A stretch of DNA of 64,000 nucleotides, taken from the NCBI GenBank assembly GCA_019058315.1, contig JAHPZH010000003.1, positions 588,451 through 652,450 on the forward strand. Reading direction: 5' to 3'. Below the pieces are notes generated by a model. That model was given only the letters and a program-made list of their open reading frames with translations, did no database searches and had not been told where the DNA came from. This stretch comes from Candidatus Helarchaeota archaeon. GTDB taxonomy: Archaea > Asgardarchaeota > Lokiarchaeia > Helarchaeales > RDOG01. Positions 8,999-16,859 of the stretch are shown in pieces. The first letter of the stretch is position 1, and each line of letters starts with the position of its first letter. A program made the position numbers and the translations under genes.

Positions 8999-9976
8999 CT
9001 ATCTGAAGTAATTGTCCATGGTTTGTTGCCTCATCTTAAAGTAGTCAAATGCTTTTTTCAAACGTTCAAGCCCTCTTTCAATGCGTTTTTGAGAAAATTT
9101 TCCATTCAAAAATCCTTTTAATATATGAAAATTTGGATAACGGAAATGGGGACCGAAATTAAATGATGGTGGATTTAGAAATTTTGACCGTAAAATAGTA
9201 AAATCAAATTCTAGTGGTATAAATTCTTCATTTATAGTTTCTAAATCATTGTATTTCTTTATTAATTTCAACGCTTTCTTTGGACCTATGCCTTTCACAC
9301 CTCCTTTATTTAAATCTGTTCCTATTAATAATGCTATATCAACTAATTGTTTATATGTAATCCCAAGATGAGTCAAATTATCCTTTAGTTTTATCAAAGT
9401 TAATGTATCATTTTCAAAATCCAGGTCTTTTATCATATTTTTAGATCCAAATAATAAGACATCATAATCATAAGAAACCACTCCAAAGGCATATTTTTCC
9501 CTCACAATGCGGCATGCTTGTGCTTCACCTTCGGAAGGGGCTCTTACAGCGGGTAATCCCATGAATTTTAAAAATTCAATACATTCAACAATTGCCTTAT
9601 CAAATAGAAAAGCATAATCGTTCAATGCTCTGGAATTATAATTACCATCTTGGATGCTATCGTGGTATTTTTTCCAAAGATATAACAATTTCATATTATG
9701 ATACGTGGGAACCTTCCTTTTTTCCTCCATAGGCATCCCATCGAATACATAGATTGGACGTAATTTTCGTTCCATTAAGTTTATTGTAAAGTAAAAAATT
9801 CCTATCAAGTGAGATATGGGTTCTTTTTGATTTTTTCTTAAATTTTTATCAATATGGGATATTTTAGAAATATATCGCACTAAAAAATTAGTCCCATCAA
9901 CAGCTACAGTCTTTCCTCTAATATCTTCAAATTCAACACTTTCTGTTTTTAAGATCGGTGTTAATTTACATCCCAT
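8999..9976 (-). CDS. fen: Flap endonuclease 1 (FEN1/XPG family), divergent
   Basis: AVDG, YVFDG, PSEGEAQ, SYDYDVLLFG, GTD..GIGPKKAL; C-terminal PIP box QQTMDNYF. Confidence 0.92.
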   Translation of the reverse strand: MGCKLTPILKTESVEFEDIRGKTVAVDGTNFLVRYISKISHIDKNLRKNQKEPISHLIGIFYFTINLMERKLRPIYVFDGMPMEEKRKVPTYHNMKLLYLWKKYHDSIQDGNYNSRALNDYAFLFDKAIVECIEFLKFMGLPAVRAPSEGEAQACRIVREKYAFGVVSYDYDVLLFGSKNMIKDLDFENDTLTLIKLKDNLTHLGITYKQLVDIALLIGTDLNKGGVKGIGPKKALKLIKKYNDLETINEEFIPLEFDFTILRSKFLNPPSFNFGPHFRYPNFHILKGFLNGKFSQKRIERGLERLKKAFDYFKMRQQTMDNYFR

Positions 9977-10565
9977 TAAAATACCCCAATAGATTCTTTT
10001 TTCCTGGTTTCTTCAAAACAATTTCAAAAATCCCGGTTGTTCTATGGAATCCGTTATTCTGTATTAAAAGTGAGTTTAATTTCACATTCAAATAAAGCTG
10101 ATACAAAATTTCCCAATGTGTCCTGGATTGACTTTCCGTTTTTCTAATGAGATTAATCATGTTTTTTATCTCAGAATTGCTTGAAGAATATGCTATCTTT
10201 AATTTATTGACTTTCATCAGACGAATTTTTTTAGGAATATATCCTTCTCGAATTCCAAATCTTTTAGAACGATAATATAACTGCCTTAATTTCTCTTTTT
10301 TACAGAATATTAACTGACAATCGCTTATCTTACCCAAAATTAAATGAAGGAGTCGAAATTCTTCATCAATCCGTTCTATCATGAAGTTCTCTGGGAATGT
10401 TACAGGACGAGGACCTAATTTTTCAATTTCGCTGGTAATAAATTTAGTCTCATTTCCGTTATGATATACAAGATAATGTATCGAATCGCCATAGTTCTGT
10501 TTCTTTAACTTGGGATCTTCGCTTTTACCAATTTCAAAATCAAAAAATAATTGATTTATCATCAA
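9966..10565 (-). CDS. Degenerate family-B polymerase exonuclease-like protein
   Basis: FFDFE (ExoI-like), EEFRLL..I, LYYRSKRFGI; ExoII/III absent; PIP-like KNLLGYF end. Confidence 0.45.
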   Translation of the reverse strand: MMINQLFFDFEIGKSEDPKLKKQNYGDSIHYLVYHNGNETKFITSEIEKLGPRPVTFPENFMIERIDEEFRLLHLILGKISDCQLIFCKKEKLRQLYYRSKRFGIREGYIPKKIRLMKVNKLKIAYSSSNSEIKNMINLIRKTESQSRTHWEILYQLYLNVKLNSLLIQNNGFHRTTGIFEIVLKKPGKKNLLGYFNGM

Positions 10566-10678: not shown

Positions 10679-12286
10679 TTAGCTTTCAAATCCTCTTTCA
10701 CGTAATTGTCTTCGAAAGTCGTCTTCCGAAATTTCACCTTTCATTTTGGAATATTCAAGCAACTTTTGAACTCCTAATTCTGTAATTTTATAGGTGTTTC
10801 TTCTGGTCACTCCGAGGACTTCTTGACTCTGAATCAAAAAACGTAATTGTATGAGTTTATGGAGTAATACTCGCAAGACTTCATCCTCGATACCCGTAGC
10901 TGATTGAATTGAGCCATACATGATTTCATCGTATTCAGTAGCGATAGATAGAATGTTCTTAACATGTTCTGCATATTGATGGAAACTTCTTTCAATCGCA
11001 CTTCTTTCTGGGACAAATATAGGACCGAAATCCCAATCCGGATAAAACATTTTTAATCGCTCTTGAATTTCCTCGTCTTTTAGAACATGCGTTTCATCAA
11101 AATTCAGATAATCAAACATTATAGGAAAACAACTTTTTACATCGGGTCGATTAAGCAGGGCTTCACCTTCTTCCATAACTCGTAGATATTCATACTGATA
11201 TTGATATTTTCGTTTTTCAGAATAGGTCTCCGTGGTTCCCTCTTCTCGTGGTCGAAAGCTCAAATTCAATAAGGAACGTAATGCTTGGCTTTCTTCAAAA
11301 GAATGAGTTCTATGGACTATTATATTGAGAAAATTCGATAATATTTGTGGAATTATTAAAGAAGGATATTGAATCGAAGTGTGTATGCCAATATCATTAC
11401 GTCGTAATGTGCTCATCCAATTAAGCAGCGAGAAGTGAGGATCATCGTTTCTTCCAATATATAATTTCGGCTGTTCCATTCCAAAGATTAAATCTCCATC
11501 ATCTATTAGTATCATAAAATCTCTATAATTAAGAAATTTGGATAGTGTGATTATTTTGATCAATATTAGAAAAATCAAAAACCTGCGACTTCTCTTATCA
11601 TTTACATCAATTTCTATTAATGCAGGAGCATCTGATACAATTTCATAAATATTTTTCTTTGTATTAGCGATCATTCTTGTCGTTTCCCCGCTTAATAAAT
11701 TATCAATATATTTATAGACGGCATTAAATTCATTTCTTTCCTTATAGCTTATTTCAGGAGCCATAACTCCGTTCCAAAGCTCATCTGTAAAACTATTCAT
11801 TGCAGGACTATTACCATACATTTCATAGACATTTTTTAACATAGTCGAGATCGCAGCTACTATCTCATCACTGAAATTTACTGACAATCGTAACATTTCA
11901 ATAAAAAAGGGGATATAATTTTCAGCAGGTACCCCTTCAGTATCAAGTGGTCCGATAGAAATATCCTCTCCAAGACGAAATATCTTCATAGTAGGGATGA
12001 AGTCTGCAAGTCTTCGATAATTTTTATTGGAAGATATTATTATATAGGGGATATTTTTTTTCACAGATTCATAGACTATCTTGGCATTTGTTAAAAATCG
12101 TTCGAGTATGTTACTTCCAACTACGATAACTCCATTTCTCATATCATCTTCCCGTAGCCCGATGGGAAGTTCTTCATGTAAAAATTCAGTTTCTATTGTA
12201 TTTCCTAATGGACCTATCTCACTTTCTAAATTTGTAGGAACAATAAATTCCACCGGATATTGGTATGGCATCGATTTTACAGCCAT
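10679..12286 (-). CDS. HerA/VirB4/CedB-type ATPase domain with degenerate Walker A/B and C-terminal wHTH; probable C-terminal part of a frameshift fusion
   Basis: PIGL..D..GVIVVGS(NILERF), ILIDDGD, LRR.DIG..SIQYPS...LSN...IVHR. Confidence 0.75.
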   Translation of the reverse strand: MAVKSMPYQYPVEFIVPTNLESEIGPLGNTIETEFLHEELPIGLREDDMRNGVIVVGSNILERFLTNAKIVYESVKKNIPYIIISSNKNYRRLADFIPTMKIFRLGEDISIGPLDTEGVPAENYIPFFIEMLRLSVNFSDEIVAAISTMLKNVYEMYGNSPAMNSFTDELWNGVMAPEISYKERNEFNAVYKYIDNLLSGETTRMIANTKKNIYEIVSDAPALIEIDVNDKRSRRFLIFLILIKIITLSKFLNYRDFMILIDDGDLIFGMEQPKLYIGRNDDPHFSLLNWMSTLRRNDIGIHTSIQYPSLIIPQILSNFLNIIVHRTHSFEESQALRSLLNLSFRPREEGTTETYSEKRKYQYQYEYLRVMEEGEALLNRPDVKSCFPIMFDYLNFDETHVLKDEEIQERLKMFYPDWDFGPIFVPERSAIERSFHQYAEHVKNILSIATEYDEIMYGSIQSATGIEDEVLRVLLHKLIQLRFLIQSQEVLGVTRRNTYKITELGVQKLLEYSKMKGEISEDDFRRQLRERGFES

Positions 12287-12293
12287 CTTAGGA

Positions 12294-12337
12294 GCCTGGA
12301 GAAGATGATTGATCCCCTCCAGGCCTGTTAGAAAAAA
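12294..12337 (-). other. Candidate -1 programmed ribosomal frameshift signal
   Basis: T TTT TTC immediately before TAA, 6-nt spacer, hairpin GCCTGGAGGGGAT-caatc-ATCTTCTCCAGGC; the -1 frame is open into the ATPase ORF. Confidence 0.7.
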
Positions 12338-13233
12338 CGAAACTTCCCGCCGTCTGTTATCTGGACTCGTTTGGCAGCTAATAAATCCTTATCTTCAAGA
12401 AGTACTAATTTTGAATGTGGAAAATTGACCAGAAATGAGGATTCCAGCTTTTGAAGATTCAATTTCACATTTTCATAGACCTCTTGGATCGTTTCTGCTA
12501 CATTTGTCCCAATTTTTCTATTATCGGATGTCCCAAACACAATCCGTGCTTCCCAAACACCTTCCCTGTTTAAAAGAAATGAATTTAAACCATCTCCACC
12601 TAATGAATCCATAAATTTGCGCATATCTAACGTGACATTTTTCAAGCGTTTAACCTCTTTTTCATTAATTGGTGCTTGGACGTAATTCCAGAAGATAGGT
12701 ATTTTTTGACCGTAAATTGAGCGTATGAAATCATTGAATTTTCCGCTGATACTTATTGGTATTGTATCAATCTTAAAAAGCCCAAATGCCGCTATACGTC
12801 CCCGACTCTCAAAAAATAAGACATCTTTATGTAATTCTCCCGTATCCTTATCTCTATAGAAAAAACATTGTATATCATTCATGAAATCCACTGTTTCTAT
12901 AGCTGCTTTTGAAAGACTTGAAAATGCCCCCCTTATCCTGTAGGATATTTGAGGTTGTAGAAGTATTGAAAGTCCTGAAAAAACCACTATAGCAATTAGT
13001 GCTGATACAATCATATCTTGGATGAATGAAGTACATATTACCCATATGGATAAGGAAATTATCAATGTCCCTATCATTATAAATAAAATTCTTGATAAAC
13101 TAGGATGAATTATGCGATCTCCCGACCAGAAGTGTTGCGAACTCCTTAATTCTTCAGTTCTGCGTCTGTAAGCTTCATTTCTGCTTCGATTATTTCTATT
13201 ATAGATATTTCTATCATAACTTTCATCTAACAT
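12328..13233 (-). CDS. Two-TM membrane protein, N-terminal part of the VirB4/CedB-like fusion
   Basis: Two hydrophobic helices then a soluble domain; ATG at 13233 follows AGGTGA/AAGGA. Confidence 0.7.
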   Translation of the reverse strand: MLDESYDRNIYNRNNRSRNEAYRRRTEELRSSQHFWSGDRIIHPSLSRILFIMIGTLIISLSIWVICTSFIQDMIVSALIAIVVFSGLSILLQPQISYRIRGAFSSLSKAAIETVDFMNDIQCFFYRDKDTGELHKDVLFFESRGRIAAFGLFKIDTIPISISGKFNDFIRSIYGQKIPIFWNYVQAPINEKEVKRLKNVTLDMRKFMDSLGGDGLNSFLLNREGVWEARIVFGTSDNRKIGTNVAETIQEVYENVKLNLQKLESSFLVNFPHSKLVLLEDKDLLAAKRVQITDGGKFRFF

Positions 13234-13238
13234 TCCTT

Positions 13239-13718
13239 TCACCTTTTGAAAACGTAAATTACACCTATGATTATATAATAAATAAAATAGGGCAAGAGAG
13301 ACCAATTATTACCCCAATTTGCAGGGTCCAAAAAATTTTCAACTATAAAGAAGATTGTGATTCCAAACCAGACCAAAGCCCAACCAAATGCAGCTTTCTG
13401 CCACGCATTTAGATCTACATCGGGATCATCTTGTATGTTTTTAGTGTGTCCAATCGCACCACCCCTTACCATATACATTGTTTCCGATATATTCCTTGCT
13501 TTTTCTAACAAAATTCGATTTCGCAAGTCTCTTTGTGTGTCCCTGACAGAATCTTTAATATTTTTTGTCACCATTTCTTCCGAAAACTGGTTAAATATTT
13601 TTCCAGAATCCTTTCCCTTGAATAAAAACGACTTTATAGCAAAAAAACTGATGATGGCTGCAAGTAATAAGGGCCATTGTGTTATGAATTCCAGATATCC
13701 TAAACTCATTCGTGTCAC
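13239..13718 (-). CDS. Three-TM membrane protein
   Basis: Hydrophobic segments; in operon with the ATPase. Confidence 0.7.
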   Translation of the reverse strand: MTRMSLGYLEFITQWPLLLAAIISFFAIKSFLFKGKDSGKIFNQFSEEMVTKNIKDSVRDTQRDLRNRILLEKARNISETMYMVRGGAIGHTKNIQDDPDVDLNAWQKAAFGWALVWFGITIFFIVENFLDPANWGNNWSLLPYFIYYIIIGVIYVFKR

Positions 13719-13734
13719 CTACATTAATTTTAAC

Positions 13735-14085
13735 CTATAAATGAATCATTGTGAATAAGAGTAACAATGAACTACCGTCTTCAGGAGGAGGTTGAGTTGG
13801 CTGACCGTTGAATAGGAACCAGAGATACCAAAGAGTATACATTCCGATTTGACTCACTGATGTATTGAAAATTTCCATCCGATACCCAAAGATCTTGGTA
13901 AAAACTATCATGCAGACAGTAAATAGGACAAATCCAGCAAACATGTATTTGTTAAATTGCCTATTACCGATAAACATTAGAAATCCAATCATTGTAACTG
14001 CTGCAAGCAGGACTAACACTATTGTCATGAACCAAGTAGCGACTGCTTGTAAGGTTAAAGTTACATTTCCTAGAACATCAACCAT
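13735..14085 (-). CDS. Small membrane protein, VirB2/CedA1 pilin-like
   Basis: TM-basic loop-TM hairpin upstream of the VirB4-like gene. Confidence 0.5.
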   Translation of the reverse strand: MVDVLGNVTLTLQAVATWFMTIVLVLLAAVTMIGFLMFIGNRQFNKYMFAGFVLFTVCMIVFTKIFGYRMEIFNTSVSQIGMYTLWYLWFLFNGQPTQPPPEDGSSLLLLFTMIHL

Positions 14086-14150
14086 TTTTTCACTTTCTTC
14101 TTTTTGATTTTTTGAAAGATTCTGGTGGTATTAACTATTTAAAAAGATGA

Positions 14151-14558
14151 TCATCCATCTTGAAGGAGGATTTTTTCCAGTAATAAATCAATTTTTGACA
14201 TGGCAAAAATAGATTCAGCAAAAATGGTTATTTGTGCGAGTTGATCATTATATCCGAGATGCAAATAAAATTCCCCTGACTCATTTTTTAAATACCAGAT
14301 ATCTTCATCATTAGATACGGGTTGAAATCCTAAACCTAAAAGGTATTCCTTAAAATTATTTAGATCTTCGTCATCAGCAAATCTCAATATTCGTTTAGTT
14401 TTGTATCTATCCCTTAAAAAATACGGTTCTCTGATGATTGTATCCCTATCTGGTATCGGAAACATTATTTTATTGTATATTATAATCCCTATGACTATGA
14501 TAACTAAAAAAATCACCAAACCGATGATTGAACCTAACAATTCTGCGTAATTTTCCAT
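14151..14558 (-). CDS. Single-pass membrane protein
   Basis: N-terminal TM and small soluble domain. Confidence 0.65.
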   Translation of the reverse strand: MENYAELLGSIIGLVIFLVIIVIGIIIYNKIMFPIPDRDTIIREPYFLRDRYKTKRILRFADDEDLNNFKEYLLGLGFQPVSNDEDIWYLKNESGEFYLHLGYNDQLAQITIFAESIFAMSKIDLLLEKILLQDG

Positions 14559-14624: not shown

Positions 14625-16859
14625 ATGGCTTTCGAATTGAAACGTTTTGGCTTGGATCAGAGGATAGTTGATATATTAATAGACCACAAAATTACAGAAC
14701 TGCGAGAAATTCAGAAAAAAGCTTTGAGATTGGGGCTCTTAAAAGGTCGAAAATTGCTTATCGTTGCACCTTCGGGATCTGGAAAAACCCTTATAGGAGA
14801 AATTGCTGCGGTTGATAGGATATTAAAACAAGGGACAAAAAGCGTCTTTTTAGTTCCTTTAAAAGCTATTGCTAATGAGAAATATGCTGAATTCACTGAA
14901 AAATATTCAAAATTAGGAATAAGTATTGCTTTGAGAACCGGGGATATCAAGGATGAACGATTGGATGTATTAAAATTCGACTTAATTATTTCGACATATG
15001 AACGATTCGATTCGTTGCTACGAACTGTTGTAGAAAAGGAGGAAAATTGGCTGGGGACAGTCGGCACAATTGTTATTGATGAAATTCATATATTAAATGA
15101 TTATTATCGAGGTCCAAGACTAGAGGGATTGATAAACAGGTTGCAACTTTATGCTTCAGATACTCAAATTATCGCACTTTCTGCAACCATTGCCAATCCC
15201 GAAGAACTTGCATTATGGTTAAATTGTAACCTAGTAAAAAGTGACCACCGACCAGTTCCCCTTGCATATGAAATTGTAGCGACTGCTGATAAAATTATTA
15301 CTATAAACAAATATGTGATTGAGACCTTGAAGCAAAATGGGCAGGTCCTCGTTTTTGCAAAGACTCGAAAGGAGGCCCAAGCATTAGCAAGGGGGCTTAC
15401 CACGGTGCTCCTTGAACATAAATTGTTAGATTCTGATGCACGTGTAAAACTAAATAACATATTTAAAAATGTGGAAATGACGCAGCGAGCAAAGTTGGAC
15501 CGGAGTCTTATAAGTGCATTGAGGTTTGGTGTTGCATATCATCATGCAGGGCTTGCATTATCTACAAGAAAGCTAGTTGAAGATAATTTTCGCGATCATT
15601 TGATTAAAGTAGTTTGTTGCACTACTACACTTGCTGCTGGGGTAAATCTCCCAGCAATGACTGTAATAGTTAAGGATTGCCAAGTAATTACCACTGATCC
15701 TAATCTAATTGTCGGTGATGATAGTCTCTATTGGCGAAATCAATTGGAACCCAATTTGCTTCACCAAATTTTAGGCAGGGCAGGAAGACCGGGCTATGAT
15801 GATGTAGGTATAGGTATTATTCTGACACCCACGAATGTCGACAAGAATAGGATTGAGCAATACTACTTTCATAGGCATAATGGAACTCTCTATCCTAAAT
15901 ATACAAATGTAAAAAGTAAATTAAACCAGAGAGAAGAACTCAAAGAGCAAGTATTAGTGAGAATACGTGAAAAAAAAGCTATGACTGCTCGACAAATATT
16001 AGATGACTTTCAAGGTTCTCTTTTATGGCACCAAATTCAATACGAAGATCCCTCAAAACCCATAGATCAATTGATAGAGATAGGTGCAATTTCCATCCAA
16101 AAAACTATTGAGGAACTTTCGGATGCGGAAATAAGGAAAAAAGCAAGGGCTATTCCAGATGGAGCGGTTCAAATCACGAAAGTCGATGAAAAAATACTTC
16201 AAGGGATTGTTTCTTCCAACATATCCCATACTTGCGCTCTATTTAGAGACTTTCCAAGCTGCACCTGTAGGGAGTTTAAGTTTAGGGAGACGACTGGTCA
16301 AATTACATTATGTAGACATTTGATAAAACTGATTGAGGTCGGATTAAAACATTACCCAAGCTTGACAAATGACTTGGCTTGTCTTTCCCTTCAAAAAGAA
16401 TTTATAATGGACTCCTTGGTAAAAGGGAATATGGTCAGATTAAGGGGGGATGAATATGTTCTTACTCCATTGGGTGATCTAATTGTCACAGCATATATTA
16501 AACCCCAAACAGCACCTGTAATAAGGGCCCATCTTGCGAGAATGACTTCAATTGCTGAAGTTTTAGAAGCTATTAGAGGAATATATACCGTTGAGATGCA
16601 TAAATATGTGGATTCAGACTTTGCTCAAATCATGTCCTATGTAATTGAACGTCCTCCAGGTGAAGATATAATGCCAAGGATTCTAGAGACATCTGAAAAA
16701 TATTTTAAAGGTCAGGGAGATATTGAGGAATTTATTTCCTTTACAAAATGGATATTAAGTGCGATAAAGAAGTTTGGGGAGCTATATGAAGTTGAGAATG
16801 CTGTTTATTATGCTGAAGAAATTGAAAGATTGTTAGAAATACCAAGAGAAGAAGAATAG
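14625..16859 (+). CDS. hel308: Ski2-like Hel308/Hjm helicase with inserted SWIM Zn finger
   Basis: APSGSGKT, DEIH, LSAT, YHHAGL, TLAAGVNLPA, QILGRAGRPG; CTC-x13-CRH. Confidence 0.88.
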   Translation: MAFELKRFGLDQRIVDILIDHKITELREIQKKALRLGLLKGRKLLIVAPSGSGKTLIGEIAAVDRILKQGTKSVFLVPLKAIANEKYAEFTEKYSKLGISIALRTGDIKDERLDVLKFDLIISTYERFDSLLRTVVEKEENWLGTVGTIVIDEIHILNDYYRGPRLEGLINRLQLYASDTQIIALSATIANPEELALWLNCNLVKSDHRPVPLAYEIVATADKIITINKYVIETLKQNGQVLVFAKTRKEAQALARGLTTVLLEHKLLDSDARVKLNNIFKNVEMTQRAKLDRSLISALRFGVAYHHAGLALSTRKLVEDNFRDHLIKVVCCTTTLAAGVNLPAMTVIVKDCQVITTDPNLIVGDDSLYWRNQLEPNLLHQILGRAGRPGYDDVGIGIILTPTNVDKNRIEQYYFHRHNGTLYPKYTNVKSKLNQREELKEQVLVRIREKKAMTARQILDDFQGSLLWHQIQYEDPSKPIDQLIEIGAISIQKTIEELSDAEIRKKARAIPDGAVQITKVDEKILQGIVSSNISHTCALFRDFPSCTCREFKFRETTGQITLCRHLIKLIEVGLKHYPSLTNDLACLSLQKEFIMDSLVKGNMVRLRGDEYVLTPLGDLIVTAYIKPQTAPVIRAHLARMTSIAEVLEAIRGIYTVEMHKYVDSDFAQIMSYVIERPPGEDIMPRILETSEKYFKGQGDIEEFISFTKWILSAIKKFGELYEVENAVYYAEEIERLLEIPREEE

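Follow-up and report, generated by a model that had tools for sequence, protein, structure and literature searches.

In the dnaX gene (tau/gamma) and in the phage tail-chaperone genes G/GT, a short and a long product share their N-terminus, and the frameshift between them is thought to set the stoichiometry of the two. In Archaea, fucA1, which encodes an alpha-L-fucosidase in Saccharolobus solfataricus, was the only cellular gene for which −1 programmed ribosomal frameshifting (PRF) had been reported as of 2021, and only a few strains of that species have the split (PMC8211752). In the literature that we searched, neither the VirB4-like gene family described below nor any frameshifting in Asgard archaea is covered.

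Here, we describe two neighbouring open reading frames, to be called ORF-A and ORF-B, in a 64,000-nt stretch of a Helarchaeota genome (the window). We consider it likely, from the comparison of sequences, that they are one gene decoded by −1 PRF, which would yield a 301-aa product with the membrane anchor only and a full-length product of 851 aa. With fucA1, the locus has in common a pair of ORFs offset by −1, a heptamer of the type X XXY YYZ (A AAA AAT in fucA1), a putative stem-loop downstream, and full-length orthologues that consist of a single ORF. It differs from fucA1 in that its signal is kept across four Asgard lineages that are divergent from one another, in having a U-based heptamer with the zero-frame stop directly adjoining, and in belonging to an unrelated gene family. 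With dnaX and G/GT, the locus shares the heptamer, the downstream structure and, as proposed here, short and long products from one gene. The shift in dnaX leads to the shorter product, whereas here it would lead to the longer one, as it does in G/GT and gag-pol. The host is an archaeon, and there is no evident upstream SD-like stimulator, in which the locus differs from bacterial dnaX and phage G/GT.

The junction of ORF-A and ORF-B

On the minus strand, the junction reads ...AAG TTT CGT TTT TTC TAA CAG GCC TGG AGG GGA TCA ATC ATC TTC TCC AGG CTC CTA AGA TGG CT. Its elements are listed in Table 1, together with the neighbouring genes. As an ORF call, the upstream ORF spans 12328..13305; the form in the protein database is the one of 301 aa, from the ATG at 13233. 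The T6 run of the heptamer is located at 12337-12332. The initial annotation had seen a T TTT TTC heptamer in the correct phase at the stop, followed by the spacer TAACAG and a GC-rich 13-bp stem, with the −1 frame continuing into the MAVKS of the downstream ORF, and all of these elements were recovered. The stem is locally G+C-rich in a window with a G+C content of ~32%, and translation of the −1 frame from 12334 gives F-LTGLEGINHLLQAPK-MAVKS, leading into ORF-B without a stop. The predicted fusion is, thus, 301 + 550 = 851 aa long.

Table 1. Features of the frameshift locus and its neighbours (window coordinates; an asterisk marks a stop).
Feature	Position	Strand	Remark
ORF-A, zero frame	12328..13233	-	301-aa product ending ...GGKFRFF*
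Slippery heptamer T TTT TTC	12331..12337	-	X XXY YYZ, in the phase of ORF-A
Zero-frame stop TAA	12328..12330	-	abuts the heptamer
Spacer UAACAG, 6 nt	12325..12330	-	separates heptamer from stem
Stimulatory hairpin (predicted)	12294..12324	-	13-bp stem 12324-12312/12306-12294, 5-nt loop
Linker LTGLEGINHLLQAPK, −1 frame only	12287..12331	-	homologous to the linker that joins the domains in continuous orthologues
Possible pseudoknot stem 2, 3′ arm UGGCUG	12280..12285	-	pairs with loop and stem top, 12311-12306
ORF-B as annotated, 535 aa	10679..12286	-	C-half of the full-length protein; ATG at 12286
Three small ORFs (159, 116, 135 aa)	13239-14558	-	upstream of ORF-A; 1-3 predicted TM helices each
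DEAD/Helicase_C (Hel308-like) gene	14625-16859	+	divergent, upstream of ORF-A
199-aa ORF and FEN1 (XPG_N/XPG_I)	8999-10565	-	downstream; the 199-aa ORF precedes and overlaps FEN1 and has no family match
Leucine-rich-repeat protein, 252 aa	8114-8872	-	just past FEN1; LRR_4/LRR_8, E 1e-35

No ATG, GTG or TTG lies upstream of 12286 in the −1 frame of the window. Since no such start precedes the conserved linker, the latter is translatable only by frameshifting. The motif as such is not rare. The bare 10-mer TTTTTTYTRA, which is common in this A+T-rich DNA, occurs 11 times in the window against 14.8 matches expected; it is not enriched, and motif counting was therefore dropped as evidence. The significance of the site lies in its phase, context and conservation rather than in the motif alone. 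A search of the junction against Rfam gave no meaningful match.

The same signal in related loci

In all, we identified 16 frameshifted loci, including that of a second strain (X4, see below), in JGI, NCBI, ENA and Logan assemblies. They represent four divergent lineages with protein identities of 27-100%. All 16 carry NNT TTT TTY with an immediate stop (TAA or TGA), a spacer of 5-6 nt and a predicted hairpin; conservation of the split, the heptamer and the stem in orthologues, which the initial annotation had named as a point to examine, thus extends to all four lineages. The codon ahead of the Phe pair specifies R, A, S or H and ends in T in every frameshifted locus.

A word-indexed search with the N-half (ORF-A) returned seven more stand-alone proteins of 299-306 aa (NCBI, JGI and Logan; 51-68% identity), all seven ending in ...GGxFRFF*. 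A search for longer proteins matching the N-half found none, a weak negative result, as the divergence of the continuous forms leaves them no words in common with it. The closest relative is P0009 (68% identity), the junction DNA of which was left out of the comparison of loci. The DNA of the other N-half relatives reads CGT TTT TTC TAA/TGA, then TGG GCY TGG AG...CTY CAR GY, and the −1 frame continues into MAVKS.

Within the clade of the window, CGT TTT TTC is invariant in seven out of seven loci. Seventeen degenerate codons at the end of ORF-A specify an invariant amino acid across seven sequences; only five of them are represented by a single codon, and three of these five are CGT, TTT and TTC. 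Three other invariant Phe residues in the same clade are encoded by TTT and TTC in alternation. The invariance of the heptamer, therefore, amounts to conservation at synonymous sites beyond the protein-coding constraint, and the changes in the stem are compensatory.

In another genome of the order, G006, the gene is split at the same codon as in the window (GCT TTT TTT TGA), and the −1 frame gives FFLSGTEGVDHFLEVPQIITKS. With five loci added by a metagenome scan and contig look-ups, the G006 clade comprises six loci, which read GCT/AGT TTT TTT TGA or GCT TTT TTC TGA. The corresponding sequence is AGT TTT TTC TAA in locus L050 and CAT TTT TTC TGA in locus L040.

The site is a homopolymer, extended to T8 in four loci of the G006 clade, and the same full-length protein as from a ribosomal slip would be predicted if RNA polymerase added one U in the U6-U8 run, by which a subpopulation of the mRNA would be in frame. 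Productive transcriptional slippage typically needs runs of 7-9 or more, for which the T6 of the window is short. Moreover, T8 and T6 (TTT TTC) alternate within the G006 clade with an unchanged frame relation, implying that the heptamer is kept and not the length of the run, and the conserved hairpin 5-6 nt further on, possibly a pseudoknot, is a hallmark of ribosomal slippage. We therefore regard transcriptional slippage as quite improbable and ribosomal frameshifting as the preferred reading of the T-run.

Verification of the T6 run

The frame breaks within a homopolymer, and the source genome (5.79 Mb in 12 contigs) is a metagenome-derived assembly, so that a homopolymer sequencing error, or else a recent inactivating deletion, had to be weighed. 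The initial annotation had pointed to T6 versus T7 in the reads as a point to check. A 49-kb Logan contig of run X1, the probable source run, shows no differences and no gaps at a depth of 17 and confirms T6. With this contig, a slip during polishing is excluded for the assembly as submitted, but the evidence is tied to the one sample. In addition, a 469-nt contig from a different study of marine sediment (X4) spans 12128-12594 with 15 substitutions (~97% identity) and no indels. Because there is no indel across this interval, the X4 strain also keeps T6 and the stop. The junction was not covered in runs X2 and X3.

Of the 12 substitutions between X4 and the window within the two annotated ORFs, 10 are at third codon positions (hand count); one other falls within the −1 linker (I to L), and a further two are unclassified. 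The third-position pattern fits purifying selection on both halves, as judged from these two strains, and is at odds with a dead gene. Neither does a sequencing error agree with T6 in two studies, or with the same frame break in 16 loci from four assembly sources over the whole range of protein identities. The artefact or pseudogene reading is most improbable and can be considered effectively refuted.

Predicted stimulatory structure

The stem in the window starts 6 nt past the heptamer, within the 5-9 nt of a canonical −1 PRF signal, and two of its 13 bp are G-U pairs. RNAfold predicts −25.8 kcal/mol for the hairpin, with a z-score of −3.5 against dinucleotide shuffles. In an alignment of eight junctions, the cells of the stem are paired in 85-92% of the cases, versus 32-65% when the 3′ arm is slid. 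One stem pair switches from U-A to C-G with a 4:3 split, at synonymous sites of a Leu and a Gln codon (the covariation is drawn from eight sequences only).

When a fixed 57-nt segment was folded, long regular helices of −14.4 to −24.7 kcal/mol were predicted for 14 frameshifted loci, whereas six continuous orthologues gave values of −5.8 to −13.1 kcal/mol and no comparable long G+C-rich helix. The continuous, G+C-matched sister of the G006 clade (L053), which reads TCT TTC TAT TTG, folds at −12.3 kcal/mol with a z-score of +0.6. The possibility that the hairpin is a by-product of the conserved codons G-x-E-G...H-F-L was rejected, given the weak folding of continuous orthologues in which similar residues occur. 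The arm sequences are unrelated between lineages (GCCUGGAGGGGAU, GGCACCGAGGGAG, GGGGCGGAGUCUGC and GGGUUGGAG). G006 has its own 16-bp bulged hairpin, and in L040, the 3′ arm is found at a different, non-homologous position.

Three continuous, low-GC loci (L042, L043 and L048) carry a modest A/U-rich hairpin of 7-10 bp, GAAAAUG/CAUUUUC, at the position of the G+C-rich stem, with a z-score of −3.2 in L048. This hairpin may simply follow from the codons for E-N-V-x-H-F, or it may represent a precursor structure.

An H-type pseudoknot at the junction is possible and is taken here as no more than a lead. The loop sequence of L029-L035, CCGCCA, is perfectly complementary to UGGCGG, located 6 nt past the stem; in the window, this second helix is weak, with five of six pairs. 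In the junction alignment, helix 2 is paired in 90.5%. The geometry would be tight, given a connecting loop of 6 nt across an 11-bp stem.

Continuous orthologues and true fissions

Four other members of the order have an orthologue. In three of these, it is a single continuous ORF (G002, 825 aa; G001, 838 aa; G004, partial), and the fourth is the split gene of G006. An exhaustive representative search showed that most relatives at 30% identity are fused proteins of 750-850 aa. Continuous orthologues (L042, L043, L044, L048, L039, L053 and some 20 database proteins of 750-850 aa) could be aligned across the junction, and the −1-frame linker of the window aligns residue for residue with their inter-domain linker, e.g., RFYLTGLENVRHFLDIPKMLVKS. 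The invariant G and E of this linker are encoded upstream of the annotated ATG at 12286. The continuous orthologues (~770-850 aa) have neither the stop nor a strong stem, and five of the six for which DNA was available also lack an in-phase heptamer. The initial annotation had considered that orthologues which are all continuous, without slippery site and stem, would count against a frameshift; continuous forms do exist, side by side with the frameshifted loci, and their linker is the one that the −1 frame specifies in the window.

The exception amongst the six is L039, which reads AAT TTT TTC ATT in phase, without a stop and without a strong stem (about 165-200). A −1 slip in L039 would end after three more codons (FF-HYW*), the reverse, dnaX-like arrangement.

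Genuine two-gene forms also occur. L036 and L037/L038 are true fissions, in which translation of the C-half can start at an ATG of its own, located 6-7 nt past a GGAGG. The two ORFs overlap by 31-34 nt in the −1 frame (2501-2531 in L036; 2501-2534 in L037/L038), and these loci continue with ParA/NifH-like and nitrogenase-like oxidoreductase genes. Since these are true fissions, the halves can work as separate chains. Slippery site and strong stem are both absent from L036 and L037, which, judged by their DNA, are a natural control: a real two-gene form without the frameshift signal.

The existence of such fissions raises the question of whether ORF-A and ORF-B, too, are separately translated genes, ORF-B being reached by termination-reinitiation or from a start of its own. 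No fusion would then be made, and the T-run and the hairpin would serve another role, e.g., in mRNA stability or coupling. Some of the frameshifted loci have a junction that would suit this: the stop is overlapped by a −1-frame ATG in L029-L035 (TAATG/TGATG) and by a TTG in the T8 loci of the G006 clade. In both groups, coupled re-initiation may also yield the C-half. The junctions of the window, L050, L047, L051 and L040, on the other hand, are devoid of ATG, GTG and TTG, and use of the first start available would cost 12-30 conserved linker residues. Fission also leaves unexplained why CGT TTT TTC is invariant at synonymous sites, why the preceding codon ends in T in four lineages and why a hairpin follows 5-6 nt past the heptamer, and the true fissions have no synonymous-invariant heptamer, no T-ending codon and no hairpin so placed. 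For these reasons, we consider fission unlikely as an account of the split, and frameshifting is retained as the reading that also covers the loci without a start at the junction.

We inferred a quick maximum likelihood tree of the C-half with IQ-TREE (SH-aLRT support). In this tree, the frameshifted loci occupy four separate positions among the continuous forms, and well-supported branches force four state changes. It follows that the signal was either lost more than once or gained more than once, in the latter case at a T-rich Phe-Phe/Tyr linker. Independent gain in at least some cases is favoured by the non-homologous 3′ arm of L040, as far as can be read from these sequences.

Predicted architecture of the two halves

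The N-half has two predicted TM helices, at about residues 41-79, and an alpha/beta domain. Its AF2 model has a pLDDT of 75; Foldseek returned nothing for this model at E ≤ 0.001, and the only rows were weak ones to the N-terminal region of TrwK/VirB4. The C-half model, made with AlphaFold2 from a 40-sequence alignment, has a pLDDT of 89. Its best Foldseek matches in the PDB are to the C-terminal ATPase domain of VirB4 (4ag5/4ag6; E 6e-11, target TM 0.73), followed by HerA (4d2i), DndH-C and TrwB (1e9r), in that order. The model has the RecA-like ASCE fold of the VirB4/HerA type, in support of the VirB4-like nature ascribed to this half from sequence at the outset. From the folds of the two halves, it follows that the frameshift site is located at what would be the linker between the N-terminal and C-terminal domains of a VirB4-like protein.

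Sequence profiles were far less informative. With Pfam and NCBIfam, including DUF87 and CagE_TrbE_VirB, both halves gave only sub-threshold noise. The distant relative P0060 scores 23.0 bits against DUF87, for which the cut-off is 23.2. Distant relatives of ~1250 aa occur in a sister family of the same class. A sequence-profile search of the PDB gave only weak MarR-like matches, to the winged helix at the C-terminus of the C-half. A Walker A motif, GxxGxGK[ST], is absent: the window reads GVIVVGSNILERF at that position, no K[ST] is found in any of five aligned orthologues, and aligned sequences read VVGSNILERF, TLGGTPDQRF, SVGAIQDELF and similar. Walker B is only partly kept. The VirB4-like C-half is, by these motifs, probably devoid of ATP hydrolysis, i.e., a pseudo-ATPase.

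The protein, thus, resembles VirB4, TrwK and HerA (FtsK-HerA superfamily) in the predicted fold of the C-half, in the weak similarity of the N-half to TrwK and in the three small membrane-protein genes ahead of it. It differs from VirB4 and HerA by the lack of a Pfam/NCBIfam match and of GK[ST] and by the appended winged helix, and from T4SS genes by its synteny with genes for a Hel308-like helicase and FEN1.

The neighbours listed in Table 1 recur in related loci. The Hel308-like gene is linked to the VirB4-like gene, divergently or co-directionally, in every lineage examined (L029, L031, L032, L036 and L037), and the pair of 199-aa ORF and FEN1 is also found past the VirB4-like gene in L029, L030 and L031. 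From this gene content, a membrane apparatus that handles DNA may reasonably be guessed at. As regards the Ced DNA-import system, in which CedB has CedA, A1 and A2 as partners, the one relevant observation is the set of three small membrane-protein genes upstream of ORF-A.

Proposed decoding and its implications

In the decoding that we propose, ribosomes translating ORF-A would arrive at CG-U UUU UUC with tRNA-Phe in the P site as well as the A site, where the G+C-rich hairpin 6 nt downstream, together with the adjoining zero-frame stop, would slow them. A fraction of them would slip back by one base (from UUU UUC to UUU UUU), decode CUA as the following codon and go on through LTGLEGINHLLQAPK-MAVKS, such that the trans-frame junction peptide would be FFLTGLEGINHLLQAPK. 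The resulting 851-aa product would consist of two TM helices, the N-domain, the VirB4-like pseudo-ATPase domain and the winged helix, while the remaining ribosomes would terminate and release the 301-aa membrane-anchored N-half.

Beyond the window, we consider it fairly probable that −1 PRF has long been kept in Asgard archaea (Helarchaeales and relatives), that its gain or loss has happened four or more times, each at the same linker between the domains of a chromosomal VirB4-like membrane machine, and that it sets the ratio of the anchor-only to the anchor-plus-pseudo-ATPase form. On the strength of the sequence comparisons, a phylogenetically conserved −1 frameshift in a cellular gene would here be proposed for the first time in Archaea. 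What sets the case apart is the host lineage, the depth of conservation and the apparent recurrence.

In practical terms, annotation would have to be corrected, in that two "hypothetical proteins" in the MAGs concerned are one VirB4-like gene. The synteny with a Hel308-like helicase, small membrane proteins and FEN1 suggests that this gene of uncultured Asgard archaea points to a membrane-associated, possibly DNA-handling, apparatus. Recurrence in four lineages offers a testable model of archaeal PRF with a natural allelic series: T6 and T8 runs, hairpin versus possible pseudoknot, and continuous and fission forms. If the proposal is true, some lineages may use an H-type pseudoknot. Asgard archaea are the closest prokaryotic relatives of eukaryotes, and the locus would then provide a natural system for the study of archaeal frameshift stimulators in that lineage.
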